64,000 nt of DNA from Tubiluchus corallicola. Lineage: Eukaryota; Animalia; Priapulida. The notes beneath the pieces were generated by a model. That model searched no databases. It saw only the letters and a list, made by a program, of their open reading frames with translations, and had not been told where the DNA came from. Positions within the stretch are counted from its first letter, which is position 1; each line of letters starts with the position of its first letter. Location: positions 1-64,000 of the forward strand of contig JAQGDQ010000928.1 of NCBI GenBank assembly GCA_030141605.1, read 5' to 3'. Of this stretch, positions 11,705 through 64,000 are shown in pieces. Both the position numbers and the translations under genes were made by a program.

Positions 11705-13900
11705 TTTAGATTTAATAGATTTATTTTCGCAATAAACATATACATATACATTACATGTGCATCGATAATCAGTTTTTGTTAATATAAAAATATGATACAA
11801 TTCATGAATTCTGCGCTAGAGACCTAAGAAGCTAGCTTATGGTAGGCCTCTAGAATTAGTTACGAAAAAAATTACAATATATACAGATACAATATTACAA
11901 TATATACAAATATGAATACGGGTGGGAAGTAATAAAAATATTATTATACTAGCGGGGAAGTTTTTGAAAATGAAAAACAACAAATCATGATTGAGTGATC
12001 AGTTATATGTTTCAAGTAAGTTTAATTTATTATTTTTTTTAAATATGGACAGCGAGTTGGCATTTTTAATAGCTGGAGCAATTGAATTCCATATGTAAGG
12101 GCCATTGTATTTAATAGGAAATTTTCTAACATTTGTGTTGCACTGTATGTAGTGATAGTTAAGTCTATAACATGTGCCGTAATTATGTATCTCGCCATTC
12201 AAACAAAAATAATCAGTAAATAAGGGAGGCGATAATTTATGAGATAATTTGTACATGAAAATGGCAGTTTGGAACTTATTAATGTCATAAATGTTTAGAA
12301 AGCTTAGTCTTTTAAATATTGGTGGTGTACGGTCCTGATAACCGGCAAATGTTATAGCTCGCACTATTTTCTTCTGAATCAGATGAATTTTTTTCAATCG
12401 ATTGGTGTATGTGCTTCCCCAAATAATGTTTGAATCATTAAGATATGGTAAAAAAACAGAATTATATAATAATACAAGTACTGATTTAGGCAATATGTGT
12501 CTAACTCTGTATATAATACCTATGGTTTTTGAGATTTTGCTTTCGATAAATCTAAGATGTTCTTGCCAAGTTAGGTGTTCATCTATGATGGTGCCTAAGA
12601 ACTTAGTATATTTTACTTGATTTATTGGGACTTCATCGATTTTTACTGTAAGATTACTAGGGATTCTTTTATTTTTATTTGTGAATACAATAAATTTGGT
12701 TTTTTCAATATTCAGCGATAACTTATTAGCTTTAAACTAGGTGGAGAGGTGTACAAGTTCTTGGTTTACAGTATTTATCATTGATTCATAGTTTGAGTGA
12801 CTATAGAATATGCTAGTATCATCGGCAAATAAAATGAAGTCTAGCAGAGTGGAGACATTGTGGACATCATTAATATAGAGAAGAAAAAGCAATGGACCTA
12901 AGATTGAGCCTTGGGGAACACCATAGTTAATTTGCTTCAAAGAAGAAAATGTGTTCTCAATTAGTACGGATTGTTTTCTGTTGTGTAAATAACTTGTAAA
13001 CCACTGTAAAGGTAGACCTCTGTCTGACACCATAGTTGTTTAATTTATCTAAGAGTATTTGATGGTCAATAGTATCAAAGGCCTTAGATAAATCAATAAA
13101 AATACCAATTGTAAATTCATTATTGTCAATTGCATTTGATATTAAATCAAGAAGTTCAAGTAGAGCCATGTAAGTGGAGTGGTTTTGTCTAAAGCCTAGT
13201 TGTTTGTTATATAATGTTTTTTTAATGAAACTTAGTAGTCTATTATACATTAGTCTTTCAAGAATTTTGGAAAAACAGGGAAGAATTGAAATGGGTCTTA
13301 TCACCAGTTTTAAAAATTGGATTAACCTTAGCTATTTTCAGAGAGTCTGGGACTATACCTGTTGAAAATGACTTGTTAAACATATAAAGTAGAGGTTCAG
13401 CAATACAGTTGATGGATTTTTTAAGGATAATTTATGATATACCATCATATCCTGTACTGTTTTTATTTTTTAAATTATTTGCCACATTTAATAGCTCCGT
13501 TTTGTCAATTGGAAGCAACTGCATTGAATTGCTACATGCATTTGGTAAGTATGAAAAATATGATGTATTTGTAGTGGGAATTTTTCCTGCTAGAGTTGAT
13601 CCTACATTTACAAAATAGTTATTAAAGCCATCCGATATTTCTTTTGATGTCATTAGGTTATGGTGTGATTTTTTGAAATGTGACTGTTCTATATGAGAAG
13701 TGTCTTTTTTATTAATAGCTAAATTTATAATTTTCCACGTTTTTCTCATGTTATTCACATTACTTTTAATTGTATTGGCATAATAATCTTTTTCGGCTTT
13801 TCTTAGTATTGACGTTAAGTTATTTCTATAAGTTTTATAAAGGTCAATGTTCAGATCAGTAGGGTTTTTTAATTTTAGTTTATATAATTTATTTTTGTCA
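11705..13900 (-). mobile_element. 5'-truncated, frameshifted CR1/L2-group LINE (reverse transcriptase ORF2 remnant)
   Basis: RPISILPCFSKILERLMYNRL, DLSKAFDTIDH, GVPQGSILGPLLFLLYIND and FADDT spread over several frames; AATAAATCT-type 3' tail near 11705-11725. Confidence 0.93.
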
Positions 13901-14834
13901 AAACAAACACAAATTCTAAACCTTCAACGCCATGTAAAATGAAGTTAAAAAACCTGCGAGGGCATGTCTAGGTTGAGGGTGTGAAAGACCAAAGTATGGA
14001 TTAAGTGCATGAAGTGGAGTCACAACTTATGTGCTGGAGATGAAAGCGATAAAACTATTGTATTTTCTGTGAAAGATGTTTTTATTGTTATCAAACAAAA
14101 TTGGCAAGTTCTTGTTAAATTTAATTGAATGCTAAATATCGCTTTGTATCAGCTTGTGTTATTTTAGGCTTAATTATCTATCTTTGATTCTGGATATGAA
14201 GAAATGTTTATTCAGACAGACGTTGACGGATGCAAGATGCGTTGTTTTTCGATACTGCCGGGTGAACAAAACATTGTGCATCTCTTTAGCAAAGAACATA
14301 AAATGGCTGCTAGATGTTGGCCGCACTCTTATCTCTTAGCAGGCACCCAGATAAAAATCTCAGATTGCCTGAACCCACTCCTATAGCTTACATACTATAC
14401 TGGTTAAGTTTCACATCTCTACTTTGTCACTTTTTGGCTGCCGACTAGTTTATGCACATAAAGACAAAGCTTGAGTTACAGAGTGGATACTGGGAGTTGG
14501 GAATACGTTACACCCTTTTCTACAGCGAAATGATTAAATACTAGTACTTGAGCATTGAAATTCAATCTTCAAATCAAGAAAATGTTTAATCTATTATTTA
14601 ATCATGATAAACGCTTTTCCAGTATTAAGTGTTTTAAAATGTATAATTTTTATCGGACTTGAAAATGGAGTAGTGTATGAAAAATCATCTTGTCTTCTTT
14701 TAAGCTTTACTAGCTCTGTATGCATTGCAGGAAATGTGTCTCTATAATAACTCTCTTTTAAATTTTTATTAATGGTCTATGTAAAATTGTGTTCACTTAA
14801 TAGCATTTTGCTTACAGTTTTATTTTGTTTGCAG

Positions 14835-32603: not shown

Positions 32604-33208
32604 TATGCACTAATTTGGTTTGTAATAATAGCAAAATAGGAGTATTTCTTAAAGAATATTTTTGTTGATAACCAAACAATTAGCTAGTCTAGTTTAGTTA
32701 AAGAATTTTCAATAAGTTTACTTCAAGCTGTGAAAATGTCACATTTTACAACACATCAGTAAGAAAGTAAAAATATTCAAGACCAATGCTTGCAACTTAG
32801 AAGGTGGCTCCATCTGAGGAAAACCCATAATTTCATTAGCCTAGAGGCCCCAGAAGGTGTGATCCGGCCCTCACCATAAAGGAACAATTCGTCTTTTGTA
32901 TTTATATTACTTGAAACCATGAATGAATGTACTAACACTAGTAAACTAAACCTTACATACATGTACCCATGTTTACGCAACCTAACAGCAAATTTGCACT
33001 TTAGTCTTTTAGCTTATTTCTGTTTTGTCGTGGTGTGGTCATCTTCAAATTTAGTAATTTGCAAGAAAGTTTTGTAATATACTCTCCGTAAGTCCAGTTT
33101 TGACTTTTATTTCTTACACAAAATGAATCAAACTAGCCTCTTCCGTACAGCGTGTGTGTTTATGTAGCTAGCTTAGTAAACTCAATGATTATAATTCTTA
33201 TCCTTCAG

Positions 33209-34184
33209 GTCACCAACGAGATCAAGAACTGAAGAAATCAACGAGATAATCTCTCGAGCACAGATGCATGCCAATGAGTATTTAGCGTCATCAACTAGAC
33301 CGACTGAACAAGATGATCCATTTCGAAACCTCACTGCTTCTCGAGATTTCCAAGTGCCTAGCTTCTCATCTTCATTGAAGGCTCCACATAACACCCCAAT
33401 ACAACAGCTTAGTCAAGCAAGAGTTCACAACTCTAAAGTACTTGATCTTGAGTGTTCATTGAATATTCCTTCTAGCCTAGCTTTGCAACGGCCAAGTCAG
33501 TCAAGGGGTTATTCCATTTCTCGTGACTCTCAAGTGCCTAGTTTTGTATCTTCATTAAAAAGTTCTTCCAACGTACCCATGCAGCAGCCTAGCCAGTCAA
33601 GGGATTATTCAACTTCTCGGGATTCTCCAGTTCATGGCCTTGAATCTTCATTGAAAGGTCCTTCTAGCACACCCATCCAGCAGCCTAGCCAGTCAAAGGA
33701 TTATTCAACTTCTCGGGATTCTCAAGTTCATGGCCTTGAATCTTCATTGAAAGGTCCTTCTAGCACACCCATGCCACAGCCTAGCCAGTCAAGGGATTAT
33801 TCCACTTCTCAGGACTCTCAAGTACATGGTCTTGAATCTTCATTGAAAACCCCTTCTAGCACACCCATGCCACAGCCTAGTCAGTCAAGGGATTATTCCA
33901 CTTCTCAGGACTCTCAAGTACACGGTCTTGAATCTTCATTGAAAGGTCCTTCTAGCACACCCATGCAACAGCCTAGTCAGTCAAGGGATTATTCCCCTTC
34001 TCGTGATTCACGAGTGCCTAGTCATGTATCATCGTCAAAAACTTCTACTAATGTGCCGATGCAACAGCCTAGCCAGTCAAGGGATAATTCCCCTTCACGG
34101 GATTGTCCAGTGCATAGTCGTGTATCTTCGTTGAAAACTTCTTCTAAATCACCCGTGCAACAGCCTAGCCAGTCAAGAAATTAG
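33209..34184 (+). CDS. Coiled-coil gene terminal exon with Ser/Pro/Gln-rich 32-aa tandem repeats
   Basis: TCCTTCAG acceptor, phase 2; 325-codon open frame; 96-bp unit (SRDYSTSRDSQVHGLESSLKGPSSTPMPQPSQ); AATAAA at 34313. Confidence 0.85.
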
Positions 34185-47010: not shown

Positions 47011-47789
47011 GAAATTTTTGTTTAATGTAATGTGTCACTTACCGATTAAAATTCAGTAGTCAAAGTGTGGAATAAATTAGAATATTGCGTATAAACAGAG
47101 CCGCATGTTCAAGCTTTAAACGCGTCAATATATTTTCTACAGAACAATACATTGATCTTTCCTGGTGGGACCACATACAATTTTGTGCCGAGAGTTTGAC
47201 CAAAATGACTGTTGTTGATGATGGTGGTGGTGGTGATGTTGGGGAACGACCTAATTTGTATAGACCTTCATGAAACTTTATACGAACACGAATTCTGCAT
47301 CGATTTCAAATACAGAACTTGAATTCTACAAAAATTGCCGATTGTTGCTAATTATTGTCTGTCAAAATGAGCGAGGATGAGTGTATAAATCAAAAGTGTC
47401 TTTGTCTTTTTGACTGACAAAGTCGGGAAACCTATCAGTCGTTTTGAATTCAAAATGGCAGCTATAACATCATTTTCGAAAAAAGCCTAAAGCTCCAATA
47501 GCTAGTCATGAAACTTTACAGGAATATGGCAGACAGAAAAACGGCATTTATCTGCTATCAGTAATAACACCATTTCCGAAAAAATGTATTGCCCTGCGGA
47601 ATTGCAAAGGATCGTCATGAAACTTTATAGGATACTGTTGTGGGTTAAGTTGCAAGCTGAGGCACCTACGCAGTTGTGACATCAGTCCACAAGGTTCCAT
47701 AAGATTTGTAAAGTTTCTGGAGTTAAGTAATTACGATCACAACACAAATATTCGACCGCCTGCACTGTAATATCTGTGTAGTAGATAGG

Positions 47790-48262
47790 AGTAAAGAGAA
47801 GATGATAATTGTATGATTAGTATTAGCAGTTCAGTAATGAAACGACTCTATGAAGGGGATATGAGAGATATGTAGAAATGAAGCCATGATTTTAGGTGCG
47901 GCTGTCATGTGACTGAATTCCATATACGGACATTGCCCGTCTGAATTGTCAGACTAGCAACAATTATAACGCATGCGCTGTGAGTCCAAAAAGCTGAAGG
48001 AAGCCAAGTGGAATGGGAGATCAGATCACGGGGGAATCTCGAGGAAGCAGGAACAGATCTTGGGCGGTTCGGCAGAGCTATGATATGTACTTTACCATGT
48101 AATATATTATTGTGAAATAAATGTGTTAGTCGCTCATCAATCCAGGTCTTATAGCTTTGTCACCACCTCACGTCAATAAACGGCTGCGGCCTCCTCAATA
48201 ATCCACCAACAAGTACTACCACTATACGACTCAGCTCATAAACATAACATATAAATTTTACT
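47790..48262 (+). repeat. 5' LTR (473 bp)
   Basis: Starts AGTAAA and ends TTTACT (terminal inverted repeat); AATAAA at 48116; followed by a TGG-starting PBS; start repeated at 63954. Confidence 0.9.
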
Positions 48263-48279
48263 GGTACTTGTGACCAGTT
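48262..48279 (+). other. Primer binding site (tRNA not assigned)
   Basis: TGGTACTTGTGACCAG overlaps the last T of the LTR; TGG is complementary to tRNA CCA. Confidence 0.65.
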
Positions 48280-48690
48280 CCGATTTTTCTACACGGAGAG
48301 AGATTCTAGTAACCTGGCTTCATTGCGTCCACAACCGCGCTGATCCAAGCAAACATGAATAAAGCTGTTTATTGACGTAATTGATCTGCCACACATCTTG
48401 ACGTCTACAACTTTGTCGTGAGTACATGCACGTTCTTTCTCCACCCTAATATTTTACTTATGTACCTTTCCTGGTTGTGTCAGTGAGTGTAAGAGATAAC
48501 GGTTGCTTGTATTTTAAAGTCAAGGAGGGTTGTAGATAAACTCTAACTTGTATATCAAACATTTTGGAGGGTTGTAACTCTAACTTGAATATCAAGATAT
48601 TGGAGGGTTGTAAAGATTAATCCTATAATGCACTGTAAATTGCGCAGCGCAAATAGATTTCTTAAATTTAATCTCTATTAAACTTTCTCA

Positions 48691-50019
48691 ATGGCGACTA
48701 AATCTCCAGCACCTGAAGCTCAGCATGTGTCTATTGATACCTATAATGCTTTAGCAAATCAATTTCATGAGTTGAGTCAAAGATGCGAGAATAGTGATAA
48801 AATCTTACAAACCCAAGCTGCTCAGATTTTAAAACAAGGAGAAAGAATAGGTGATTTGAAACGGGCTAGTGATCAGACCCAATTTTTATGTGAATTGGGC
48901 ACTCATCTAAAAGACACTAAAGTACAACAAACATTAATCCACCAAATTCAACACTTACCGAAATTTTCAGGAGAACCCGGCACTCTCAAATATAGAGATT
49001 GGATTGATAATATAGAGCAGTCTCTAAACTTAACTCCTACATTATTGACATCAAGGGACACCGCCTACAAGCATTTAATTTTGGGCACTATTACAGGGGC
49101 AGCCGCAAACTTTGTGAGTAAATACCCAAATCTCGAGACGAGAACAGCACAGGAATTACGAAACGCCCTAAGAGACCTATACGCGGACCGACTAGAAATT
49201 AATAAGGCTTTCATTGGATTAACTCGAGCTAGGCAACAGAAGGGGGAGACCATACAGGCTTTTGGCGACAGGATACTCAAATTAGCAAGAATAGCAAAAA
49301 CGTCAGAAGATGAAATAGTAGACCCAGCCTTTCAATCATTTTTGGTACAATTATTTACACTGGGTATACGAGGGGACCAGGCACGTCAATACTTACTTAG
49401 AGAGCCTCCCCGAACTCTAACTTTGGCAATCACAGAAGCCGCTAACAGGGGAGCCCCCGTGGAGATGTGCCAATATCTTAGATCGTGTTTTCCAGATAAT
49501 TCAGAACCTATGGAAGTTGATCTAATTTCACAAGAACTTCATGAAGACCCCTCAGACATGACTCCCCATACATTGCAGCTGTTTGCAGATTCATTACTTA
49601 AACAGGGACAAGTTTTAAGCAACGTACAAGAATCGGTATGTTCTCTTAATAAAACTGTCGCTACTTTGGCAAAACCAACACAAAATCAACAAGCAAGATT
49701 CGGTAAAGGACGTCAATTTGTACCAACGGGTTTTAATAATAATAATAACCGACAATTTCGGACAACCAATCGACCTAACGCTCCATTTCAACGTAATTTT
49801 AATAACTTTAATAATAGACAGTTCTACAACGAACGACCGAACACAGGTTTCAGGTTTCAACCGCGCGCTACGAATAGAAATAACAACTTCAATCAACGCG
49901 CGTCATGGATGCCTAGAGAAAACGCCCCGAATTTCAGATTTCAGAATAATAGACCATTTATTCCTAGGTTTAATAGGGAAAAACAATCCGGCAATTTTAA
50001 TAGGAGAACGGCAAACTAA
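48691..50019 (+). CDS. gag: Gag protein (442 aa)
   Basis: N-terminal coiled coil, LPKFSGE...WIDNIE capsid start, QKGETIQAFGDRI (MHR-like), EPMEVD motif, N/R/F-rich C-terminus without a CCHC knuckle. Confidence 0.93.
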   Translation: MATKSPAPEAQHVSIDTYNALANQFHELSQRCENSDKILQTQAAQILKQGERIGDLKRASDQTQFLCELGTHLKDTKVQQTLIHQIQHLPKFSGEPGTLKYRDWIDNIEQSLNLTPTLLTSRDTAYKHLILGTITGAAANFVSKYPNLETRTAQELRNALRDLYADRLEINKAFIGLTRARQQKGETIQAFGDRILKLARIAKTSEDEIVDPAFQSFLVQLFTLGIRGDQARQYLLREPPRTLTLAITEAANRGAPVEMCQYLRSCFPDNSEPMEVDLISQELHEDPSDMTPHTLQLFADSLLKQGQVLSNVQESVCSLNKTVATLAKPTQNQQARFGKGRQFVPTGFNNNNNRQFRTTNRPNAPFQRNFNNFNNRQFYNERPNTGFRFQPRATNRNNNFNQRASWMPRENAPNFRFQNNRPFIPRFNREKQSGNFNRRTAN

Positions 50020-51357
50020 AAGCGACCATTCATGAAAATTATCGGTCGTCAGAGTGGTCGCATGATCCTAGACCGAATTATTCCAATTCTTCTTTTAATG
50101 CACCCGACAAGTCTAAATTTCAACAAACTGTTTCAGAAACAAAATATATTTCTATTGCATCCATAGAAACGACGGCTCCATTTTGTAATATTAAAGTTCA
50201 TGATTATCCTTGTACAGCTATCTTAGATACAGGAGCAGAAGTTAGTGTTTTAGATAGCACCACTTTCCATAAACTCCCAACAGAAGTACAAAAAACCCTT
50301 ACGTCCCCTGAAGATAATTTTGTTTTAAATACTGCTTCAAAAAGCACGTTAAAAATATTAGGTAAATGGCATTTTAACTGTTACCATAGGAAAACAGAAA
50401 TTGGAAAATTTGTTTTATATCGTAGATCAACTTTCAAAACCTGTAATTTTAGGTTATAACTTTTTCAAAAACACCCAAGCAGCAATAGATATTGCCAACG
50501 GAATTTTAGTCATAAATCAAGAGGTACTTAAATTAGCTCCCCCGAGCGAAAAACGCATCTTTTTGGTCAAAGCCGCCACTGCTTTATTAATTCCCCCAAA
50601 ATCTTGTGCACTTGGCAAGGCGTATATCACAGGAAATTTTCATAAGAATGATGAATGCGTTCATACTTTAGAACTCCTTAAAGCGAACGTATTACCTATT
50701 TATAAAGAAACCACATGTGACATAGTTCCCAGTATTGTGAATATGTATAAGAAACAAGTTTATGTACCCTTATACAATGACGGTGAAAAGGATGTAATTG
50801 TATCTCGGAATGACATTTTAAGTCTTGCAGTTGAACAAGACCCAACAGTTATGTATCAAGTTTCAAATATTGCTAAATGCACGGAAGTTATGAACTCGAT
50901 ACAACAAATAGCTTCGCAACTTCAGAATGAAATTTTCCCTAAAATAAATACAACGGATAAGGGAAATTCCTTGCCAAAATATGTTCGTAGACTTCACGTT
51001 CAGACACTGGACCATGTGACGAAATACGGACCACCACAAGATTACAGATTACAACAGACACCTTACAAGACTGAAGCCATCTTGTATAATACTCCAAATA
51101 TAATACATTCCATTGATGAAAATATAGAAGCTAAACCTACTTCAAATAAACGAAGACGGAAACGGCTACAAAAGCATATTAAACAACAATTCGTTCGTAT
51201 GATGTCATCGGAAAGCTTACTAAAAGAATTAAAATTAGATAACATTACAGATCCCGTACTTAAGGAAAGACTCACTAAATTGCTTCTTAAATATGCAGAT
51301 TGTTTTGCTGAAGATCCCATAGACGCCCCGGTACGTCGGAAATTGAATTTAAAATAA
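50004..51357 (+). CDS. pol: Pol N-terminal part: aspartic protease and spacer, interrupted by indels near 50370 and 51325
   Basis: CTAILDTGAEVSVL (DTG at 50226) in one frame; the continuation ENLFYIVDQLSKPVILGYNFF (ILG motif) is in the next frame. Confidence 0.85.
50010..50079 (+). promoter_or_regulatory. Putative -1 ribosomal frameshift signal (G_GCA_AAC plus pseudoknot)
   Basis: The protease frame is -1 to gag and overlaps it by only 16 nt; heptamer 50010-50016, 5-nt spacer, stem 50022-31/50052-61, second stem 50037-47/50071-79. Confidence 0.75.
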
Positions 51358-51359
51358 GA

Positions 51360-54300
51360 ATGACAGATTATACACCTTATCACGCTAAACCGTACCCTAT
51401 ACCTATAAATTTGGAATCAGTGGTTAAACAGGCTATAGACACTATGTTAAAGGCAAAAGTCATAGTCCCAGCTGAGAATTCTAGTTATGCAAGTCCCATT
51501 CTGTTAGTTCCAAAAAAAGATGGAGGGAAGAGATTATGTGTAGATTTGAGACAAATCAATGCACGTACACTCCCTGACCCCTACCCACAACCGAACGTCG
51601 AAACATTATTTAAAGAATTAAAAGGTGCTAGTATATTCTCCTCTCTAGATATGACAAATGCATATTTTCAGATACCAGTTGAACCCGACAGTCAACCTTT
51701 TACAAGCTTTGTCAGCCCGTATGGCTTATTCCAATTTACAAAAATGCCCTTTGGTTTGAAGAATGCACCAGCTACATTTTCCAGATTAGTAGACCGCCTT
51801 TCACGTGACTTAATAACACCCACGGGTAGGAGACGCTTAATTGCTTATCTAGACGACCTTGTCTGTTGCAGTCCGGATATTGAAACCCATTTTTCCGATT
51901 TAGAAGATTTATTTTTGAGATTACGGAAAGCAAATTTAAAATGCCGACCCAGGAAATGTTTTTTCTTACAAAAATCTATTAAATATTTAGGCCACGTTTT
52001 GTCTGAACAAGGCATTGCCACAGATCCGGCAAAGGTGTTAGCTATTAAGAATGTTTCACCACCCACAGATATTAAAAAGCTAAGAACTTTTTTAGGTCTA
52101 GCCACTTATTATCGCAAATTCGTCAAAAATTTTGCGATAATAGCTGAACCATTATTAATGTTATTAAGGAAAGAAAATTCGTTTAAATGGACACATTTAC
52201 AACAAGAGGCTTTTGACAAACTGAAAACAGTTTTAACTGAAGCACCAATCTTGAAATATCCGGAGACTAATACAGGTTATATTCTCCATACCGATAGTTC
52301 GAACTTTGGCATAGGCGCTGTTCTTTCGCAAGAAGATGCAGCTGGAAATATCGGAGTGATCGCGTACATGTCGGAAACACTAAACAGCTCACAAAGATTA
52401 TGGCCTACATTTCAAAAGGAAGCATACGCCATCGTAGCTAGCTTTAGAAAATTTAAAACATATCTATATAACGCGCCAAAAATCGATGTTTATACGGATC
52501 ATGCACCGTTAATTTATTTGTTTACAGGTGCTAAATTAATGAATCAATTACTGTCTCGATGGGTAGTTGAGCTATTACAGTATAATATTAATATTTATTA
52601 CCAAAAAGGTTCAGAAAACACAGTTGCAGACGCGTTAAGTCGACTACCTGCATGTCCAGATTTTATAGGAACGCTCCCAATATCCTTTAGGGATTTTCAA
52701 CAACAGTTTCTACAATATAATTCGCCTGAAAGATTAGCAGAGAAATATAAATACTTAGTAGATCAGAAATCTACTTCAGAGCGCAGTAAAGGTATTAAAA
52801 CTACAGAGATGATTGCCCAAATCAGCCAACAAATGTCAGGTCAAACTGAATTAGAAAACTACTCAGATCAGACAATAATTAAAAAGGTACTACCTATAGA
52901 GGGTAACATTTTAGAAGAAAATATTTGGACAGGTGAAGACCCATTGTTAAACAGACCAACGGTCGAATCAGCTGGCAATGAAAACGCTCCAACTCAAATT
53001 CCATTACCAGCACAAGAAACCTCCTCATCGGACAACCCAGCCACTCAATTAGAACAAGGTGAAACTGAACATGACCTGGACGAATTCGATGGATTACCTT
53101 TAGATCTAACGACAGTACAGCAATGGCAATTATCAGATCCTAAATTAGCACCAATTATTCATGCCTTAACCTCACCTACAGAAACTGATATTCAAACAAA
53201 ACATGCAGAAAATTTCTACATTGATGAGCAGGGATTATTGTATAAAGTTGAAAATGACTCCATTAATTTAGAACAGGAAAATTTACGGTTAGCCATTCCA
53301 GCGAAATTAACAAGTATTTTAATTAGAGGCTTTCATGACGAATTTGCTGGACATTCTTCAGTAAAAAGAACATATGAGCGTCTGAAGAAACGATATTACT
53401 GGCCCGGCATGTTTGTACAAATTAAGAAACATGTAGATCAGTGTTTGAACTGTCAAACACGGCGTATGAGACCGCATCGTAAACCTTTAGGTATCACAGA
53501 ATTAGCCAGTAAACCCTTTGAAAATGTATATTTGGATATCTTAATTTTACCCCAGACAGAATCTGGTTATAAATATTTACTAGTTTTAATAGATCAATTA
53601 AGTAGCTGGATAGAGGCCTTTCCTTTAATTGATAAATCAGCTAACTCAGTTGCTAATGTCATCCTTACAGAATATTTCTCTCGTCACGGAGCAAGTAAAA
53701 CCTTTTTCAGTGATCAGGGAACAGAATTCAATAATGCTTTATTAAAAGCTTTACTAAAAGAATTCAGGGTTGTTCAAGTATTAGGAACACCGTACCACTC
53801 GAATTCACAAGGCCAAGTTGAACGCGCTAATCGCACTATTATCCAACAATTAGCATATGTTTGTCAACAAAAGTCCACAGATTGGATTAAATATCTGCCG
53901 CATGTATTATTCGCCCTTAGAACAACTCCAAATTCAATAACGGGGTACAGTCCATTTTTTTTAATATATAATCGCCACTGCGATTTGCCACTCGATAATA
54001 TCCTTCAACTTAGATCTAAATATTACGGATCTGATCCAATTAGACTGGATCTAAATCGTTTGCATGAAGCCTTTCTGCAAACCCGACAACTGATGCATAA
54101 AAATCGTCTAGCCCACAAAAAACGCTATGATAAAAATACGCATATACCTCTTTTCAAAATTGGTGATCCAGTTTTCTTACGTAAAGGTAATTTAGACCCT
54201 GCTGAATCACATAAACTATGTCGACCGTGGGCCCCATATTATGTAATAGTTAATAAAATTGATGAATCCCGTCTTAGAATTGTCCATAATAACACAGGCA

Positions 54301-54819
54301 AGTTTAAAATAGTGCACCCAAACCGGTTACGAAAGGCAAATTTGCAAGGAAATCAATGGCTGCTACCAACAGGAACGTCGTCGCATTCCAAGCGAACTTC
54401 AAAACGAAAATCCACATTACATTACGTCCCGGAAACTCTTTCAGACACTGATTCAAATAACCTAATAAATGAGATCCAACCTGACCAAACCCCCATCGCA
54501 ACCCCGCCCCCGAACTTGGATTTCTATGAAAATGAACCCCAACCTCAACCTAACATTTCACCCAGTTCGTCAAATTCTACACTTCATTCTTTGCCAACTT
54601 TAGAACGTATAGATCCGATGGAAGAGGAGAATTTAATTCAAACCGAAACAGATTATGCAATGCCAGTAGACAACTTAATTCCCCCCCTCGCAAACCGTTC
54701 TATAAAACGCTCATCAGACGCCGACACGCNNNNCTGGTAAGCGTGCCAGAATTAATTTAATTAAGTTGCAAAAACCAGGCATCTTTAAAACATTACGCCG
54801 AAAATTTTGCAAACAATAA
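51360..54819 (+). CDS. pol: Pol: reverse transcriptase, RNase H, integrase
   Basis: RLCVDLR, MPFGLKNAPATF, YLDD; TDSS...TDH...VADALSR; HHCC zinc finger, DDE core (LDIL, SDQGTEF, QVERANR). There is an NNNN gap at 54730-33; the likely true end is ...GKRARINL...FCKQ* at 54819. Confidence 0.96.
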
Positions 54820-56592
54820 CTAAAATAATATTAATGTTACAGTTAAAGTTACCATGTATTATAAGGTCATACTTTAACGTTTAATATTACTGTTACAATC
54901 AAAGCATTTTTATATTATAAGGTAATACCTTAGTGCTATAAAATAGAATAGTACCATTTTAAGGACGAGAACGTCATCAATCATGTTTCTTTATGTATAA
55001 GGTAAGTACAAGTTTTATGTATAACGAAAGTGTTTAGAGTATGAACATTTTTCGATTCCCGGGAGAGCATTTCCCGTGTGTGACGTTTAAATGTCACATA
55101 CGGCATGCTTATGCATATCGAGGCTGTTCATGCAACTATTTTATTAAAACATTTAGTACGAGTTCAAAACATTTAGTACCAGTTCAAGCCCGGACACGAC
55201 TTAACACCACAAGAATATATATCGGTAAGTACATTACGAACATTAACATGAAGCCGTCCCCCCCCCTCACTCATGACTTTACATAGAAGGCGATCAGACT
55301 TTCATTTTCTTAATTTATGACACGCGGACTCTTAAGAAGTTTCACTAAGAAACCGCGCTGAGCCACGCAGGCGTCGTGTTTCATTCATGACTTTCACTTT
55401 CGTAATTTACGACCCAGGATTCCCAAGCTTTAAGAATACTTCTCTCCTAGAAGCCATATAAAGATCGTGTTTCATTCCTACTGATACATGCTGGGTACAT
55501 ACACGGCAACGAACCATATGAGCGCTAAAAGTCTTAGCCCATAAAATGGCCCCCCGTGAATGACGCCCAATGTTATGCTTCTAAACGTCACATAAACTTA
55601 CACTGGGGCTTACCACGCCTAAAGACACTCAGAGACTTTTATTTAATGCGCTTCCCTTCAGATAATGTAGCGTATAAATTTACTTAACAACTACACAAGT
55701 TCCAGAGAGGGATATTGCTTAAATGATTCAAGAATATTTGCACAACGTTCTAATGATTGACAGAATAATTGTGTATTGCTGTAACGATTTTAAAGAATAT
55801 TTCAAAAAGAGTATTTAGATATTGTTTTATCGACATTAGGAGGATATCTTACGGTATATCACTAAGTGTAATTAAATAAATACTTAACACAGCAACGAAC
55901 ATTTACGCTGTATTACTCTATAAAAAGAATTTCTATTCAACAAGCCCCATTGAAGTACTAGAACGAATAACCAACATATTAAACTAAGATTATAGCTAGA
56001 TTAAACTCGGAATTTCTAATTCAGATAACCGACTTGAATAAATGTATTGATCAAACGTTTTAGTCTAGAGTTTTAATTACTACAATCATTTCAAAACGGA
56101 TAAAAATGACCATTTATAACTTATACATTTTAAATTCTAACGACCATTTACGAGAAAGTTAAAACCAACTAACTGTCAGAAAATATAATCCATCTCACGT
56201 TTAGCTATAATTCAACTCACCCCTAGTTAATTACGGCAAATTACGCGCATCACTAGACAATGATAAAAGATTATATATAGTCTAGACAAGTGTCTGTTAA
56301 AACCGAACGCGCGGACTCATCAACGCAGAGTATTATCACCAAATTAGTAATTCTTCATGCAGTAGAAAAAAAAAGGTATTTTCCTTGTAGACTCTAATCA
56401 GCGAATATTCGATTATTGTATAATGACTTATGATGCTAAATACAAACATACCTTCCTTGCGATCCGCCTTGATCCATAATGCATAGTCACACTTCTATAT
56501 ATATATGATATGTCCACATAAAGGATAAATATTTTTTTTTCTTTTCAAATTTTAGGATTTTTTTTAAATTTTTTTTTAATTTTCCACTTTTC

Positions 56593-57147
56593 TTAGCACT
56601 TCACCGCTAACCACCTTTCTTCCGTTCCCTCCTCCCAGTTGCGTTTATATACTCTCATCACCCGTGCCAGGTCCCATATTGTTATTATGTTATGTGCCGC
56701 GGTGCAGATACAAAAATTCTCTCGGTTGATAAAGCGGACCCGGCCGGGCGCGTATTTGGTCAGTAAATTTGCCATAACTGGCATCCCATGAATACTGCTC
56801 AGTTTTAGCACCACTAGTTCTTCCTGTAAAAGGAATATAAATCTTTATTAAAAGTCCTCGAGACAAATTTTCTTTTAACTGCAGAATTAGCAATCTAGTG
56901 ATTTTAACATAATAGTCCTTACCTCAAAAAAAAAAAACAAAACAAAAAAAAAACCATTACTTACTCCATCAATGATGGACTTGCCGCAGAAAAGCTCGCA
57001 TGTGCCAGGCAAGTACGTCATTTTTAGAGCACGACTAAGTTGGTCATGCAACTGTGCCCGTTCATCCAAAACATCGTAAAAGTTCCCGCTCGTAATTTCG
57101 AGCTCTACTGCCAATAAGTAGGCATCTCTCGGTACTTCACATTCCAT
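56593..57147 (-). CDS. Putative two-exon antisense gene inside the element (exons 57147-56965 and 56823-56593; 137 aa, unknown function)
   Basis: AAAATGG start, GGA|GTAAGT donor, TTCCTTTTACAG acceptor joining in frame; GC-richer coding blocks between AT-rich flanks. Confidence 0.6.
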
Positions 57148-57970
57148 TTTTATTATTATTTTGAAACTAGTAAAACTGGTGAAACTAGAAAAAAAACTGA
57201 ATACTTTGCACAACTGATTAAGACGCCTTGACCACACGAACAGAAATTACGAAGAGGGACTGACCAACAACTGCAAGTCTCTTTTATGTGAGAGGCCTGG
57301 GAACTTTCGTATACTGCGTATAGAATTTGACTCCGTTTGGGCCCCAATGCTCATTACTAAGCGATAAAAGTACTAATAGTGAAAACCCTAGACGCAAAAC
57401 CGAAGCTTAACGACCATTCTGATCTACAACTTATCCTGAGAAAGGGGACTGCAAAATCTTTTCCCACGGACATTAACTGGCTTTAAGAAGAAAGATGAAT
57501 TGTTTTTACTATTAGCTGTCCAGGCCAAAATTATTGCAAGTGGACACGTGCTTCACTCGCCCCCCTTTGATCAACGCTGATCGGATTTCAAGACTCACCA
57601 AATAAGTCGAGATTGTTAATTGAGCCACACTTATTTACGCATGCGCACATGCGCCAGGGATACACCTTTAAAATAACTGTCCGTTACCTACTAAATCCAT
57701 TCATCCAGATTTTTCTTATAGTAAGGGACTCTGAATAGACGTTAAGATAATTTTGCCTTGAATACACATTAATCTTAATAATTTTTGCTGTGAATACATG
57801 TTAATCTCACCATCTCATAATTTGAATTTTTGTGAAAAAAAAAAGAGTATGGAACTTTCAGGAAATACGTAAGTTTATCTTAAATTTATTCTAACCTTAC
57901 TAATTTAGAGTCATAGAAATGATCTGTATAGGACAACCTGAATAATATTCCTTTTGAATTTTTTTTCCAG

Positions 57971-60586
57971 GACCAGTACTACAAACCTTTTATACAAAAT
58001 CCTAATATTGGCAATATTCTTAAATCTGTACATTCTAATTCCTTACAATCATTCCCAAATCCAGCTCCCTTTAAAACAGGCCCAGGGGTTATATTTAAAC
58101 AGAAATTAAATACTCCAGTTTCTAATGCAAGATGGCTACTTATTGCGCCGATACAGTTGGACCACATTCAAGAATTTCTCACTAGAACGCTTTCCGAAAT
58201 TCAACAATTAAGATTAATTAAAAAACCTGTCACAGTGATTAAAGCCTTTAAAACTGCTATTAAAAATAGAATCAGAAATCAACAATTTCGTTTAAATTCC
58301 ATTAAGAATTTAATAGCCTCGTCTGCCCATGAATCTCACGTCGTCAAACGAAGCATTTTTCCGAATCTAGGAAAGGCATTCAAATTTTTAATCGGAACCG
58401 CGAGTGAAGAAGATCTTCGAAATCTTCAAGATCAGATTACGAGTATCTTTAATACGCAACAAAACACGCAAGATATTTTAGAAAATAACCTAGCCCTTAT
58501 CAATAGCTCGCTAATTCGCTCTGCTAGAAATACAGAGTTAATTTATGACTTAGTGAACGCATCAGTTCAAACTCGACATTACATTAACAAACTGTCAAAA
58601 CAGTTTACTGATGACTTGACTAAAACTCAACATAAATTGTTTACATTCTTGCAAACAAATTTGCTGTTTGATCACTTTATCTATAGCTTAGAAATCATTG
58701 ATCAAGAATTGAATTCGTTATCCCAAGGTTTACATCAACTAATTCTTAATAAATTACCCCCAACTTTAATAACCCCTATACACCTTCAAAAGTCTCTTAA
58801 ACAAATTGAGGACCAGCTACCACAGAGCCTAATATTTCCAGCCGATATAAATAATCAATTATTCTATTATTACGAAACAATGTCGGCATTACCTATTCAA
58901 ATTCCCGGAGGGTTTGCTATCCTAACAACATTAGATTTATATCATGTCAATCACATCTATCAAATTTTTGAAGCAATATCGATCCCAGTCCGTCGGACAT
59001 CAACCAATATTAATAAACCTGTTTATCTATATAACCAAATTGATCATCAGTATATTGCTACGAATATTGAGCAGTCACTATATTTTTTCCCAGCCAAAGA
59101 TGAAGCCTTTGCTTGTATTCAAAGCCCAAAACGTATCTGTAAGTTAGCACCAACGCCAATTTTTCCTGCAGATAGAATAGAATCATGTACAGCGGCATTG
59201 TTTTTCAAGGACACTATTAAAATAGATTTATTTTGTGATCAACGAGCAAGAATTATTAATAAACTTGGACCAGTTATTATACCTCTAACTGAGAATACTT
59301 ATTATATTAGCCCGAGTTTTGAAATTCAAGCCATAAAATCTTGTTACGTACCCCGCCAGGCTCATAAGATTGGCACCCCCCTCACCATCAAGAACCCGAT
59401 GATCCTGCAGTTAGAATCAGGGTGTGGCCTATCTTCTAAATATGCAAATTTACCAATATATTTTAAGAATCATTCAGACCTTACTTTAACTCAAACGGAC
59501 ATCCAAACAATCTTAGATACGGCACTTAATTTAAGTACTTGGAACGTTGATTTATTAGGAAGTAATTTTACGATAGGAACACTTCAAACACTGCAAGCTC
59601 TGCCGTCACGAATGACAGAGGATGAACCACTTGACTTTTCTCTTAAAGGTAGTCAAAATCTCTTATTAAAACGACAGAAGTTTTTGGACCACACTGATGA
59701 ATTATTCAAAACCAAACCGGTTGACTTTTCCAATCATAAGGGTGCATCATTGACAACATACTTATTTATAGCACTTATTATAATCTTTATTATAATTTAT
59801 GTGACTTGTCGTACGAAAATTAAGACAGCATGTTGCCCCCGTCTTATAAACACCAAACCAACTTCTACCAAGGCTAAACCACCCCGCGGTACCCATTCTA
59901 ACAAACCCAATACTCCGCCTATGACACTTCACCCTAACCCAATGACCCGTAATAGACTTCCTCAATACCAGCCTCCCAAGGAATTTATCAAAAAACCCGA
60001 ACCACGGGAACCAATTGTTCGTTATAACCCAAATAACGATTCTGTTGATTTCGTATCCGTCTTTACATTCCATTCAAGAACAGTAAAACTTCGTTTATTT
60101 CTTTTATTCTATAGTTTTACCCACGAGGCCGAAGATCACCTTTCGAAAATAGATGACAGCATAGATAAATTTCTACAAGAACTTAACGAAACCTACGAAG
60201 TCAATTATAACTTGATTCGTAACCTTTCAACACCTGAGACACCCCAAACGCCCCAATCCAACTCCACCTATGAGAATACTGAACAAATTATGCCTTTAAC
60301 CTTTTCCCTCGCACCAGACACTCCGTTATCTCCCCAGGAAATATATCACTTTTTAAAATCACCACTTCCACCAATCCCAGACTCGTTAACAGCTGCTTCC
60401 AAAGACACACAGACTGACTTGACTTGTCAACCCAGCGAAAAAATTGTTTTTACTACAACTAAACTGTCACCCACTGTTTGTACTAAACAGACACAGACAG
60501 AATTTTCGTTTCCACCAGATCTTCTTGTTCTTGTGAAACGCCCTTTATCGGAAAACGAGTTCTTTCATAAATTCGCTCCCATATAA
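57971..60586 (+). CDS. env: Envelope fusion glycoprotein (baculovirus F / errantivirus env-like), probably spliced at its 5' end
   Basis: The frame opens after a TTTTTTTCCAG acceptor; GVIFKQ...WLL N-terminal motif; KR|SIFPNLGKAFKFLIGTASEEDL cleavage site and fusion peptide; heptad region, Cys-rich region, TM LFIALIIIFIIIYV, long cytoplasmic tail. Confidence 0.88.
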   Translation, partial: DQYYKPFIQNPNIGNILKSVHSNSLQSFPNPAPFKTGPGVIFKQKLNTPVSNARWLLIAPIQLDHIQEFLTRTLSEIQQLRLIKKPVTVIKAFKTAIKNRIRNQQFRLNSIKNLIASSAHESHVVKRSIFPNLGKAFKFLIGTASEEDLRNLQDQITSIFNTQQNTQDILENNLALINSSLIRSARNTELIYDLVNASVQTRHYINKLSKQFTDDLTKTQHKLFTFLQTNLLFDHFIYSLEIIDQELNSLSQGLHQLILNKLPPTLITPIHLQKSLKQIEDQLPQSLIFPADINNQLFYYYETMSALPIQIPGGFAILTTLDLYHVNHIYQIFEAISIPVRRTSTNINKPVYLYNQIDHQYIATNIEQSLYFFPAKDEAFACIQSPKRICKLAPTPIFPADRIESCTAALFFKDTIKIDLFCDQRARIINKLGPVIIPLTENTYYISPSFEIQAIKSCYVPRQAHKIGTPLTIKNPMILQLESGCGLSSKYANLPIYFKNHSDLTLTQTDIQTILDTALNLSTWNVDLLGSNFTIGTLQTLQALPSRMTEDEPLDFSLKGSQNLLLKRQKFLDHTDELFKTKPVDFSNHKGASLTTYLFIALIIIFIIIYVTCRTKIKTACCPRLINTKPTSTKAKPPRGTHSNKPNTPPMTLHPNPMTRNRLPQYQPPKEFIKKPEPREPIVRYNPNNDSVDFVSVFTFHSRTVKLRLFLLFYSFTHEAEDHLSKIDDSIDKFLQELNETYEVNYNLIRNLSTPETPQTPQSNSTYENTEQIMPLTFSLAPDTPLSPQEIYHFLKSPLPPIPDSLTAASKDTQTDLTCQPSEKIVFTTTKLSPTVCTKQTQTEFSFPPDLLVLVKRPLSENEFFHKFAPI

Positions 60587-60646
60587 TTTATATAAAGTTT
60601 GATTCAACGCTAATTTGTGATGTATAGATATGTTTCATTTTGCAGC

Positions 60647-60805
60647 ATGAATACGCTACGATCTAACCCCCCTACCGACGAAGTTATATCACGTCGCGCG
60701 TATATTACAGTCGTACTTTTGACACTACTTGTATTCTGCATAATAATAACGGGAATACTGTTTGCAGTCTGGGAAAGAAAATGTGAACTGCTGGGAAAAC
60801 AATAA
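60647..60805 (+). CDS. Small single-pass membrane protein (52 aa), putative accessory ORF
   Basis: ATG directly after a TTTCATTTTGCAG acceptor; hydrophobic segment YITVVLLTLLVFCIIITGILFAVW flanked by basic residues; AATAAA overlaps the stop. Confidence 0.55.
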   Translation: MNTLRSNPPTDEVISRRAYITVVLLTLLVFCIIITGILFAVWERKCELLGKQ

Positions 60806-61256
60806 AAGGGATGAAGAATTGAAATGTTGCCTTGAATAATATATGAGTAATTGTATAATGAGTATGACTGGATACCTTAACCTATTTTCCATATATCATT
60901 CTTTCCTTTTTTACCTTAACCTTAAAACCCTGCCTAGCACGTGCAAGAAGCCAGCCGGCTTCATCTCAACAAGACAGCTATCGACCGCCGGAAGTCAGCA
61001 CGGAAATCCATCGTACACACCGAGCGACGCAGCCAAGCCAAGCCAGTGATCATAGTAGTACACAAACTTTGCAGCTGTCTTTGCTAATGTTTGCTAATCG
61101 CTCTAGAACTAGTCTACGTAAACTACAGAACAACTATTTTGTGAAATTGTGTAAACCAGAGCCCTAGTTGATATATGGTGAACAGCATCAAAGAAAACTT
61201 TGTTCCGGTGAACAGCATTAAAAATAACTTCGTTCTACGTTTCATTTACCAGTGCA

Positions 61257-61616
61257 ATGAAACTAAATATGAAACTAAATATTCGAGTATTAGCAACTTA
61301 CACATATCAAAAACCACCTTTCAGGAAAACCTACTACCTCGTAAATTATAAAGGAGCTCAGTTTATTATCTTAGAATTACTACATACGAAATATTTTAGA
61401 AGATATCCGTTGAGTGTAATTAACTTTAAACCGTACTTTGATCGATATTTAACAATGAGGATGATTAAACATCGTGTTTCGCAAAATGTGAATCAAGCAA
61501 CTGTACCTACTATAAATTGTCAGGACTTTATAAATTGTCAGGACTTTATGCGCTGTCAGAACTATTTTAAACACTTAATGGGAGAACCACATATTTGTGT
61601 CGACGATATAATTTAA
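61257..61616 (+). CDS. Orphan 119-aa ORF
   Basis: ATG-initiated ORF between env and the receptor ORF; RKTYYLVNYKG weakly recalls the chromodomain YLVKWKG motif; internal INCQDF duplication. Confidence 0.4.
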   Translation: MKLNMKLNIRVLATYTYQKPPFRKTYYLVNYKGAQFIILELLHTKYFRRYPLSVINFKPYFDRYLTMRMIKHRVSQNVNQATVPTINCQDFINCQDFMRCQNYFKHLMGEPHICVDDII

Positions 61617-61711
61617 AAGAAACCTTTAGACTAACATATGTTGATGGTGCAAGAACATTCGGCCTTCGCTACATTATAAAGACGTTTAAAACGTTGTGTA
61701 ATTGTTTAGCC

Positions 61712-62578
61712 ATGTCAGACACGGTTATACAAAGCTGCCTAGTCTGTTCTGCAGCAGCTTTCATTAAACACTATGGCAAATTAACGTGTAACGCGTGCCG
61801 CTATTTTTTTTACAGAAAGCAGCACGTTAAAAATGTATGTTCTAAACGTGGCTGTGTTGGAAATTGTCGTATTACCCCAGACACCAGACGTCATTGTCAA
61901 CTTTGTAGATTTAACAAATGTATAGCCGTTGGTTTACAGCCAACTTCACCTCGTTTTGGGAGGTCATCTAAATCTCGTCAGAATCGTCTCAAAGCTAAAC
62001 TTAATTATCGGGTCAAATCTATTAACCGGATGGCAAACCAACTTCTACCTGTCGCCGTAAGAATCACAATTCAGAAGGCATGCCAACAACCCGAATTACA
62101 AACATTACCTGTCGAAGACCAGAAAATTCTACTAAAATCTGGCGCTCCAAGTATAATTCTAATTTGGCTAAATACACTTATTAATTTCGTGTCGCTTGCC
62201 CAAGAATTAGTGCCGCAACATCAACTCAGTGATTTCGATGAGTTTACACAACAACTTTATAGAACTGCACAGGCGATTATGCTAGTTAGACCAACGCAAG
62301 ACGAGTTGGAAATCTTAACAAACATCTTACTCTATGACTCAACTTGCCTTAATTTACAACGTCCAGACCGAGTGGCTCATTTTCACTCTCGGTGGATAGA
62401 ACGATTTAATTGTGAAATAGCACTTCACTGGCCTTCTAGATTCACCTCGCAAATGGGGGCTTTAAGCAACTTCCAGGCTTTATATCAAGCAGTAATCGCT
62501 TTTGCGACACGACTGAAGTCTGTTCAGCTCAACTTGGATCAAAACACTTGTTTTCAGACAGAGGAAGAGAATGAATGA
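61712..62578 (+). CDS. Intronless nuclear receptor (C4 zinc-finger DBD plus shortened LBD), NR1-like, 288 aa
   Basis: GCCATG start; C-x2-C-x13-C-x2-C with HYG; C-x9-C-x2-C-RFNKC-x3-GL; RFGRSSK C-terminal extension; LBD signature LPVEDQKILLKSG and H8-H9-like TQDELEILTNILLY. Confidence 0.92.
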   Translation: MSDTVIQSCLVCSAAAFIKHYGKLTCNACRYFFYRKQHVKNVCSKRGCVGNCRITPDTRRHCQLCRFNKCIAVGLQPTSPRFGRSSKSRQNRLKAKLNYRVKSINRMANQLLPVAVRITIQKACQQPELQTLPVEDQKILLKSGAPSIILIWLNTLINFVSLAQELVPQHQLSDFDEFTQQLYRTAQAIMLVRPTQDELEILTNILLYDSTCLNLQRPDRVAHFHSRWIERFNCEIALHWPSRFTSQMGALSNFQALYQAVIAFATRLKSVQLNLDQNTCFQTEEENE

Positions 62579-62579
62579 A

Positions 62580-63290
62580 AAATGAATAACATTACTGTAT
62601 ACTTATATTTTGAACTTTAAGAATAATGTTCAACATTTTGATCATTTTGATACAATTTTAACATGGAGATTCAATGAATAAATGAATAACATTGTGTGTT
62701 CAATGTATAATATGATGTTAAAGGAATAATATTGAATAACCGTGTGTATTCATATATGATGTCAAATGAAAGATATTGAATGACACTGTGTACTTATATT
62801 ATGGATGAAATGATGAAATATTGAACAACCGTGTGTACTTATATAGGATGTCAAATGAATGATTGTGTATGTATATTATGAAATGATGAATAACGTTGTA
62901 TACTTATATTTTGAAATGCGTCCAATAATGTTGTGTTCCTGTATTTTGAAATGAAATGTTGGATAGTATAATGTTGATTTTGCACGACGTGTGTATTTAT
63001 ATTGTATAATGATTGATGATTCATCGATGTCAGATTGTCATTTATACTTTTATGACCGTGATGGATGACGGATGATTTATTGATGCAGATTGTCACTTAT
63101 ATTTTATGACGGTGACTAATGATTCAGATTGTCACTTATATTTTATGACGGTGACTAATGATTCAGATCGTCACTTATATTTTATGACGGTGATTGACGA
63201 CTCAGGTGACGACTCAGGTTGTCATTGATATCGTTTGATAATGATTGATGATTCAGGTTGTCAGCTGATGACTTATAGCTGATGACATAT
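62580..63290. repeat. AT-rich degenerate tandem repeats in the element's 3' untranslated region
   Basis: For example the 39-bp unit GATTCAGATTGTCACTTATATTTTATGACGGTGACTAAT, about 3 copies at 63086-63195, and recurring GAATAAC..TGTGTA units. Confidence 0.75.
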
Positions 63291-63942
63291 ATATATATCT
63301 ATTTTGCCTTGATTTACGTAAATTTATATCCTGACTTGACTTGTATTCGGAATGGTATTTTAAATGGTATCAGTTGAACTCATATAATTACTCCTATAAC
63401 TATATATCTCAATAGCATAGTTGATACGATAAAGAAAATCGATTAGGATAGTATACTGCATGATTGGACCTATACACTCGTATATTGTGCGCTTACTTAT
63501 ATAGTTTGCATATATATATTAGAAACTCTGATAAATGTTACACGTATGTATCAACTGTGTGTTTAATAATATTTGTATATCTCATTAGCCTAGTTATACT
63601 TACTAAGGATGATAACATGATAAGGAAAATTGCTTGCTATACTAGATTTAACCGGTATACCTCACCTGTCCATATTACTGTTATCAATGTTGTAAATGTA
63701 TAGTTTAGTATAAGGACGAGCAAGCCTCGTGCCTCCATACTCACAAGGACATTCGGATTGCCTAGATATTTTAATTAGATATTTTAAATCAGATATTTTA
63801 CTTAGATATTTTAACTGGATATTTTACTCACATATTTTAAAAATCAGATATCTTAAATCACATATTGGTCATGTATTTTAGACAGATGATATAATATTAA
63901 AATTATCTAATCTGCCAGCCCCGAGGGAACTAACTTCCTTTT

Positions 63943-63953
63943 AGGAAGAGAGG
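63943..63953 (+). other. Polypurine tract
   Basis: AGGAAGAGAGG, preceded by a T-run and immediately before the 3' LTR start. Confidence 0.8.
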
Positions 63954-64000
63954 AGTAAAGAGAAGATGATAATTGTATGATTAGTATTAGCAGTTCAGAA
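63954..64000 (+). repeat. 3' LTR (first 47 bp)
   Basis: 46 of 47 nt identical to the 5' LTR start. Confidence 0.9.

Follow-up and report, generated by a model that had tools for sequence, protein, structure and literature searches.

A remodelled nuclear receptor gene in a probably env-bearing Ty3/gypsy element of Tubiluchus corallicola

Among viral proteins, the closest described counterpart of the receptor gene discussed here is v-ErbA, which is likewise a nuclear receptor aboard an enveloped retroelement and which has also lost AF-2. In BFVD, v-ErbA from the gag-erbA-erbB protein of avian erythroblastosis virus (Q64895) is the only match with E <=0.001. The two cases differ in genetic context. 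v-ErbA is a gag fusion, whereas the receptor in the 64,000-nucleotide stretch of DNA analysed here (the window) has its own ORF after env, in a multi-copy invertebrate Ty3/gypsy family with an excess of synonymous variants. In contrast to v-ErbA, it also has a rewritten P-box, lacks helices 1-2, and is at most 30% identical to any host receptor tested.

Cellular receptors offer partial parallels. With Rev-erb/E75 (NR1D) the receptor has in common the absence of a helix-12 motif, an RFGR extension and a similar ligand-binding domain (LBD) fold, but it lacks CEGCKG and the helix-11 His, which in Rev-erb is a heme ligand, and its groove residues are changed. The distance from the last Cys in the DNA-binding domain (DBD) to the LBD signature is 56 aa, versus 242-284 aa in the Rev-erb-like proteins P0099, P0129 and P0134. 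PPAR (NR1C) is closest to the receptor in sequence among PDB entries (3dzu_D, E 4.7e-15). Its RFGR and DQ..LLK.G motifs are found in our receptor too, and the C-x3-C spacing is possible, but the AF-2 helix 12 is missing and the P-box is different. In SHP, TLX and PNR, the LBD starts from helix 3 and helix 1 is absent, according to the available text of PMC4335298, and the same is predicted by the model of our receptor; the ties at the head of the VIA comparison include 4nuf, 4log and 4xai (Z 14.7-15.0). The same text describes helix 12 as necessary for autorepression by SHP, TLX and PNR, whereas our receptor has no helix-12 motif.

On the side of the mobile elements, the errantiviruses, which are env-carrying invertebrate Ty3/gypsy elements, have gag-pol-env order, LTRs and multiple copies, as is the case here, and an F-type env, to which the env-like ORF of the window is a putative counterpart. 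In its available sections, an errantivirus survey nowhere mentions a nuclear receptor ORF (PMC13524379), and the extra ORFs of bdelloid elements, as far as the accessible part of PMC5408684 describes them, encode env-like proteins, esterases and exonucleases. Among the matches listed by full-text literature searches outside subscription papers, there was no retrotransposon-borne nuclear receptor. The capture of a host gene is a known kind of event, but a rebuilt receptor under selection, kept as an accessory gene in its own right, seems to be a novel form of such capture. A multi-copy invertebrate retroelement family keeps the receptor as a separate gene with signs of purifying selection, and the viral precedent in the structure library is v-ErbA alone. 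The locus amounts to a natural experiment in receptor design, with a minimal DBD and helices 3-11, without helix 1, helix 12 and RXR markers, and with three of the four base-reading residues changed. It bears on how a receptor may act without the standard coregulator surfaces, and on whether retrotransposons encode sequence-specific regulators of their own.

The LTR retroelement fills the window from 47790 to 64000 (Table 1). LTRs, a primer binding site, a polypurine tract and protease, reverse transcriptase, RNase H and integrase in this order are those of an env-bearing Ty3/gypsy element; of the 3' LTR, 47 bp lie inside the window. In this copy, gag-pol and env are spread over several frames. 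The env-like ORF aligns with Baculo_F over 540 aa (E 1.6e-4), with a score of 20.8 bits that is under the cut-off of 24.1. In the reverse transcriptase search, the best relative was at most 46% identical, and no close kin was found. Pol and env are separated by a 3.1-kb gap with short ORFs only (54741-57930), and a donor-like site (57869) and an acceptor-like site (57970) are present just 5' of env. Between env and the receptor gene there are two further small ORFs. One (60647-60805, 52 aa from the second ATG) has a single transmembrane-like stretch, is directly preceded by a strong acceptor-like site at 60645, and could encode an accessory protein. The other (61257-61616) is an ATG ORF of 119 aa, which follows an acceptor-like site at 61252 and has no Pfam match.

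Table 1. Features of the element and of its receptor gene, in window positions
Feature	Position	Strand	Remarks
5' LTR	47790..48262	+	473 bp, AGTAAA...TTTACT ends
Inverted GTCA pair	47904-47915		In LTR; 2-nt spacer; sole such pair; reached in 15 of 300 shuffles
Primer-binding-site-like TGG motif		+	Shares last base of 5' LTR
gag-like ORF	48682..50019	+	Assigned from position; nothing above cut-off in Pfam
Protease, RT, RNase H, integrase	50004..54740	+	Ty3/gypsy order; several frames in this copy
F-type env-like ORF	57932..60586	+	Furin-like VKR site, transmembrane stretch
Candidate splice acceptor	61695..61711	+	TAG ending at 61709, 2 nt 5' of ATG; weak
Nuclear receptor ORF	61712..62578	+	288 aa, no intron; between env and polypurine tract/3' LTR
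Zinc finger 1	61736..61798	+	His12-Tyr13-Gly14 retained
Recognition helix	61787..61816	+	CNACRY and FFYR; Asn19, Arg22, Tyr23, Tyr26; Arg27 retained
Zinc finger 2	61838..61906	+	Three Cys (43, 48, 52), two expected
C-terminal extension	61937..62020	+	RFGR and basic helix, predicted continuous with helix 3 (helix 87-124)
LBD core, helices 3-11	62021..62548	+	Helices 1-2 missing; beta-turn/helix 6 region shorter
Tail	62528..62575	+	16 aa, no AF-2 motif
Tandem repeats in 3' untranslated part	62710-63291	+	44, 35, 39, 12 and 14 bp; GTCA/TGAC-rich
Polypurine tract	63943-63953	+	
3' LTR start	from 63954	+	Feature 63943..64000 with polypurine tract; 46 of 47 bases as in 5' LTR

Misassembly does not account for the receptor ORF. 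Apart from base 62011, the stretch 61560-62604 is covered by four contigs of run X1, with zero differing letters and zero gaps; X1 is possibly the source of the window itself, and hence this tiling tests the assembly only. We also considered whether an artefactual frameshift had altered the C-terminus, and rejected this, the contigs being gap-free and the other two forward frames over the tail also being without an AF-2 motif. The original prediction had the ORF start at 61736, but the ATG is at 61712, and the N-terminal region of the receptor comprises 8 aa only. Contigs in X1, X2 and X4, the last from a second study, represent divergent sister copies with an identity of about 85-90%. Among the best-supported 40 of 162 variant rows, 26 of the 40 listed letters are synonymous, where 22-28% are expected (p <=1.4e-6), and in a stricter tally, where all unlisted changes in two contigs are set as non-synonymous, 20 of 40 remain synonymous (p 0.0001-0.003). 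The receptor copies thus bear signs of purifying selection on the protein. When contig depths are added up, the ORF has about the depth of the remaining internal region and more than that of the flank; since depth does not equal copy number, this can serve as a hint at most. Not every copy is intact: 16-17 nt are missing between the zinc fingers in one divergent contig, and an element variant without 859 bp of the receptor ORF (61657-62517) is found in contigs of both X2 and X4, and hence in two studies. The presence of such ORF-deleted copies would fit a trans-acting factor. Third-position GC content (GC3) is 0.34 for the receptor and 0.29-0.32 for the element's own genes. The candidate acceptor upstream of the ATG has 8 pyrimidines in 14 positions, and a comparable YAG precedes 16% of ATGs. 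Similarity to divergent sister contigs resumes at 61696 and 61705, and the acceptor-like TAG near this point weakly suggests that the receptor is made from a spliced RNA.

The DBD is that of the nuclear receptor superfamily, with a PF00105 (zf-C4) score of 54.1 bits against a cut-off of 21.1, and it retains the zinc ligand positions, Tyr13 and Arg27. The NR1 recognition helix, CEGCKGFFRR (PMC2045677), is not matched by the CNACRYFFYR of our receptor. The unusual P-box CNACRY, pointed out before, is indeed present at 61787-61804, and is unique to the receptor within a set of 244 DBDs, which were parsed from the query together with the 150 hits that match it best. According to the available text of PMC2225407, half-site bases are contacted by positions 19, 22, 26 and 27, counted from the first Cys. 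The receptor has Asn, Arg, Tyr and Arg at these positions, whereas the references have Glu (31/32), Lys (31/32), Arg (29/32) and Arg (32/32). Tyr26 is thus a second changed base-reading residue, which the original prediction had missed, and position 23 has Tyr instead of Gly. As three of the four half-site-reading positions differ, the DNA specificity is likely to be altered, which upholds the earlier proposal, with changes at positions 19, 22, 23 and 26. Asn19 accompanies relaxed reading in FAX-1, with a context-dependent effect (PMC2225407, available text).

The second finger has the predicted C-SKRG-C-VGN-C arrangement with one surplus Cys (61838-61867). The D-box had been called odd, and its spacing does depart from the x5 norm described in the accessible part of PMC10497141, but it is not unique. 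Among the 244 parsed DBDs, 63 are without x5 and 14 have x3, and the C-x3-C carriers include PPARs and the first DBDs of CLPCKS-type two-DBD receptors. With Cys48 as the ligand, the spacing would be the PPAR-like x3, and with Cys43 as the ligand, it would be x8. Cys43 aligns with P0123, a distant relative discussed below, and is invariant in alignment A2, and judging from the alignment the x8 loop is as likely as C-x3-C. Superposition on ROR and Rev-erb, which had been suggested as a check, brings the model DBD to within 1.3-2.8 A rmsd of the ERR-gamma, RXR, ROR and Rev-erb DBDs. DNA binding is therefore likely to be retained, as far as sequence and model can tell.

The connection between the domains is short, as had been noticed: the final Cys of the DBD and the P-x-L in the LBD signature are 56 aa apart. 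This distance is at least 133 aa in 35 of the 40 signature-bearing hits and 52-95 aa in the other five (156 hits examined). The hinge, described as deleted, is absent, and helices 1-2 are absent as well, but the link of 30-35 aa is a retained C-terminal extension, the RFGR and basic helix of which match those of PPAR-gamma and Rev-erb. An LBD is nevertheless recognizable. A custom HMM of host LBDs (six of 36 references were left out, as the signature pattern was not found in them) aligns residues 112-257 with an E-value of 2e-16, and hhalign gives 99.9%; PF00104 scores 15.4 bits, under its cut-off of 23.5. In the VIA comparison, an LBD match has Z 15.4 and rmsd 5.7 over 180 aligned residues, and the PXR, NR2F6, PNR, Rev-erb-beta, SHP and TLX LBDs are tied at the top with Z about 15. 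Most of the top alignments begin at helix 3 or just before it. For helix 11, the VIA ranges and the sequence alignment are in conflict, so that these ranges were not applied to single residues.

AlphaFold2 with 46 sequences gave a model with mean pLDDT 85.6 and pTM 0.66; the sequences are mostly host receptors, and the fold is therefore biased toward these. A single-sequence fold reached pLDDT 36. In the AlphaFold2 model, residues 87-124 form a single helix, the beta-turn is replaced by helices, helix 11 extends to residue 279, and the tail is of low confidence (pLDDT <50 for residues 280-288). The receptor is thus predicted to be a folded DBD joined through one long helix to a core of helices 3-11. 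The hydrophobic core is retained, but many conserved LBD residues are altered. The LBD half has a pI of 5.2, and the tail ends in EEENE. The tail is without the hydrophobic-hydrophobic-x-E-hydrophobic-hydrophobic motif of AF-2, in agreement with the original prediction, and an intact helix 12, which would have contradicted it, was found neither in the model nor in the tail frames. The C-terminus had also been called truncated. This holds for the loss of AF-2, but not for a shortening of the Rev-erb type, since a degenerate tail extends 16 aa beyond helix 11. Ligand independence, which had been proposed earlier, and the absence of AF-2 activation are both likely in view of the sequence and the model.

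The helix 3-5 groove is common to coactivators and corepressors (PMC3315023, available text), and Rev-erb-beta is described as holding NCoR via a conserved helix-3 Lys in the accessible part of a preprint (bioRxiv 10.1101/2020.05.05.079277). In our receptor, the FAK..F part of the signature is lost, as had been stated, and reads KAC..L, with Lys122 in place of Phe and Cys124 in place of the helix-3 Lys. We take this Lys to be K421 of Rev-erb, from the alignment and the protein length. The residue after DQ is Lys138, where 32 of 32 references have a hydrophobic residue and P0123 has Arg. Lys142 and the D-Q-x-x-L-L-K motif are retained. A TR-beta groove mutant that is said to have lost coregulator binding altogether carries no weight in this reading. 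Sister contigs carry C at 62081 (depth 13/64 in X1, 31/46 in X4), and sister copies therefore probably have Arg at residue 124, in the helix-3 clamp.

The surfaces for partner receptors have changed as well. An E42-R62-R105 triad has been tied to RXR heterodimers (PMC9535869, available text). The corresponding residues are Ser147, Cys212 and Gln255, whereas E, R and R are present in 24/25, 20/25 and 20/25 references, and the class II markers are thus lacking. P0123 keeps R62, and a single transition would turn Cys212 into Arg. Together with the probable Arg124 of the sister copies and the kept Lys142, this indicates that the copy studied here may have undergone some of the losses recently. At the position of the Rev-erb helix-11 His, the receptor has Val261. 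SHP binds EID1 at the site of the missing helix 1 (PMC4335298, available text), and by analogy this site may be a candidate for alternative docking. The receptor had been suggested to be a repressor or dominant negative with altered specificity. Ligand independence, lack of activation and altered specificity fit the data, but the analogy to Rev-erb and v-ErbA is weak. Dominant-negative action would need shared sites or RXR and is unlikely, given the changed base contacts and the changed E42, R62 and R105.

The one relative of similar design from the searches is P0123, a Logan protein of 316 aa on a single Logan contig of 2046 nt, which is 24-27% identical to the receptor. Its P-box reads CTPCRT, followed by FFYR, its beta region is short, and it ends straight after helix 11. 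Arg22, Tyr26, a basic groove residue and the absence of AF-2 are common to both proteins. P0123 has 13 rare residues in common with the query, and every other row of the alignment has at most 7. In the trees, from which P0124 was left out as the signature pattern was not found, the two proteins group with support of 100/97 when both domains are used and of 100/98 with the LBD by itself, subject to a long-branch warning, since two long branches are united. Beyond P0123, the tree supports no grouping and hence no placement within NR1. AU tests allow PPAR, Rev-erb, ROR/HR3, CAR and NR2E each as the sister of P0123 and the query (p 0.125-0.31); a grouping with PPARs is rejected if the query is placed there without P0123 (p 0.005), whereas with P0123 included it is allowed (p 0.125). 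As P0123 has most of the same remodelling at about 25% identity, the remodelling is probably shared and old. Searches for close relatives gave none. One had no hit among 376 candidates, and another gave seven hits among 1570 candidates, namely P0123 and six proteins of the CAR type. In a further search with 3300 hits, the best 150 match chiefly via the DBD, and the Atlas LBD matches include NR0B clusters. No named host protein of the same design turned up in the homologue searches, and locus scans of viral and metagenome contigs detected no such receptor. Divergent P-boxes are frequent among the parsed hits, and are common in nematodes (PMC3908500).

Possible target sites were sought within the element. 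A scan of 47766-48250, which is slightly off the final LTR edges, detected no AGGTCA-type response element in the 5' LTR. The tandem repeats downstream of the receptor ORF, which include a direct-repeat pair at 63029, are possible regulatory sites or a possible enhancer. The excess of GTCA in the 3' part (24 versus 12.5 expected, reached in 0 of 300 shuffles) was discounted, since the copies sit inside these tandem repeats.

We favour, with somewhat less than even confidence, the view that the receptor is an element-encoded, ligand-independent and non-activating DNA-binding regulator with private sites. The protein would be made from a spliced subgenomic RNA, and its recognition helix and RFGR extension would bind a half-site other than AGGTCA. 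LxxLL coactivators and RXR would not be recruited, and NCoR/SMRT would dock poorly. Given the N-terminus of 8 aa and the missing AF-2 motif, there would be no activation domain. Transcription might be damped through occupied sites in the LTR or the 3' enhancer region, or at a few host genes, both target and sign being putative, and a partner could bind at the site of the missing helix 1, as EID1 does on SHP. It is a more speculative, and rather doubtful, extension of this view that an enveloped Ty3/gypsy lineage domesticated the receptor long ago as a private switch for its own expression, which reads a new DNA word and responds to neither ligand nor RXR nor the usual coregulators, and that P0123 is a distant, element-borne member in another animal.

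A receptor that behaves like Rev-erb or v-ErbA, recruiting NCoR/SMRT via an open helix 3-5 groove and repressing or dominantly blocking the targets of host receptors, seems rather unlikely. The missing AF-2 motif, the RFGR extension as in PPAR-gamma and Rev-erb, the retained D-Q-x-x-L-L-K, the probable Arg124 of the sister copies, the place taken by the Rev-erb-beta LBD among the VIA ties (Z 15.0, rmsd 3.6, 167 aligned) and that of v-ErbA as the sole BFVD match at the chosen threshold all point in this direction. However, Lys138 and Lys122 lie in or beside the groove, this copy has Cys124, the triad tied to RXR is lost, and Val261 replaces the helix-11 His. Moreover, the helix-3 Lys is required by Rev-erb (available part of bioRxiv 10.1101/2020.05.05.079277), whereas P0123 has Gln at both Lys positions, and sharing of sites with host receptors is unlikely given the changed base contacts. 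It is unlikely that the receptor instead transactivates the element's own promoter in a non-canonical manner, through its acidic tail or through a novel surface on the LBD. Complex retroviruses encode such activators, Tas and Tax, and self-activation would presumably bring the element the greatest gain. The acidity of the LBD half, the EEENE end and the several small ORFs after possible acceptors would suit this model, but both the AF-1 region and the AF-2 motif are missing, and the acidic tail is absent from P0123 and predicted at low confidence.

The remodelling might also have been inherited, if the element took its gene from a host receptor family that had diverged beforehand, like the expanded ones of nematodes and other lineages, and has altered it little since. 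The features in common with P0123 and the strong grouping with it speak for this origin, as do the divergent P-boxes among the hits and in nematodes (PMC3908500). Yet the searches gave no named host protein of this design, the base composition is that of the element's genes, and the grouping with P0123 unites two long branches, so that we consider this origin quite unlikely. This reading concerns where the gene came from, and the receptor could still act as the regulator favoured above. That the gene is a decaying captured retrogene without function is very improbable. Deleted and frameshifted copies do exist, and many conserved LBD residues have changed, but the 288-aa frame is open, synonymous variants are in excess, the zinc ligands and the hydrophobic core are retained, and the model is confident.

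Upstream of the element, the window contains three further features. An exon of an amiloride-sensitive sodium channel (PF00858, E 1e-19) is present on the reverse strand at 8082-8492, followed at 11999-13923, also on the reverse strand, by the broken remains of a reverse transcriptase of LINE-like type, one piece of which matches RVT_1 with E 8e-16. On the forward strand, a Ser/Pro/Gln-rich frame of 329 aa with 96-nt repeats (33195-34184) is probably an exon of a host gene.
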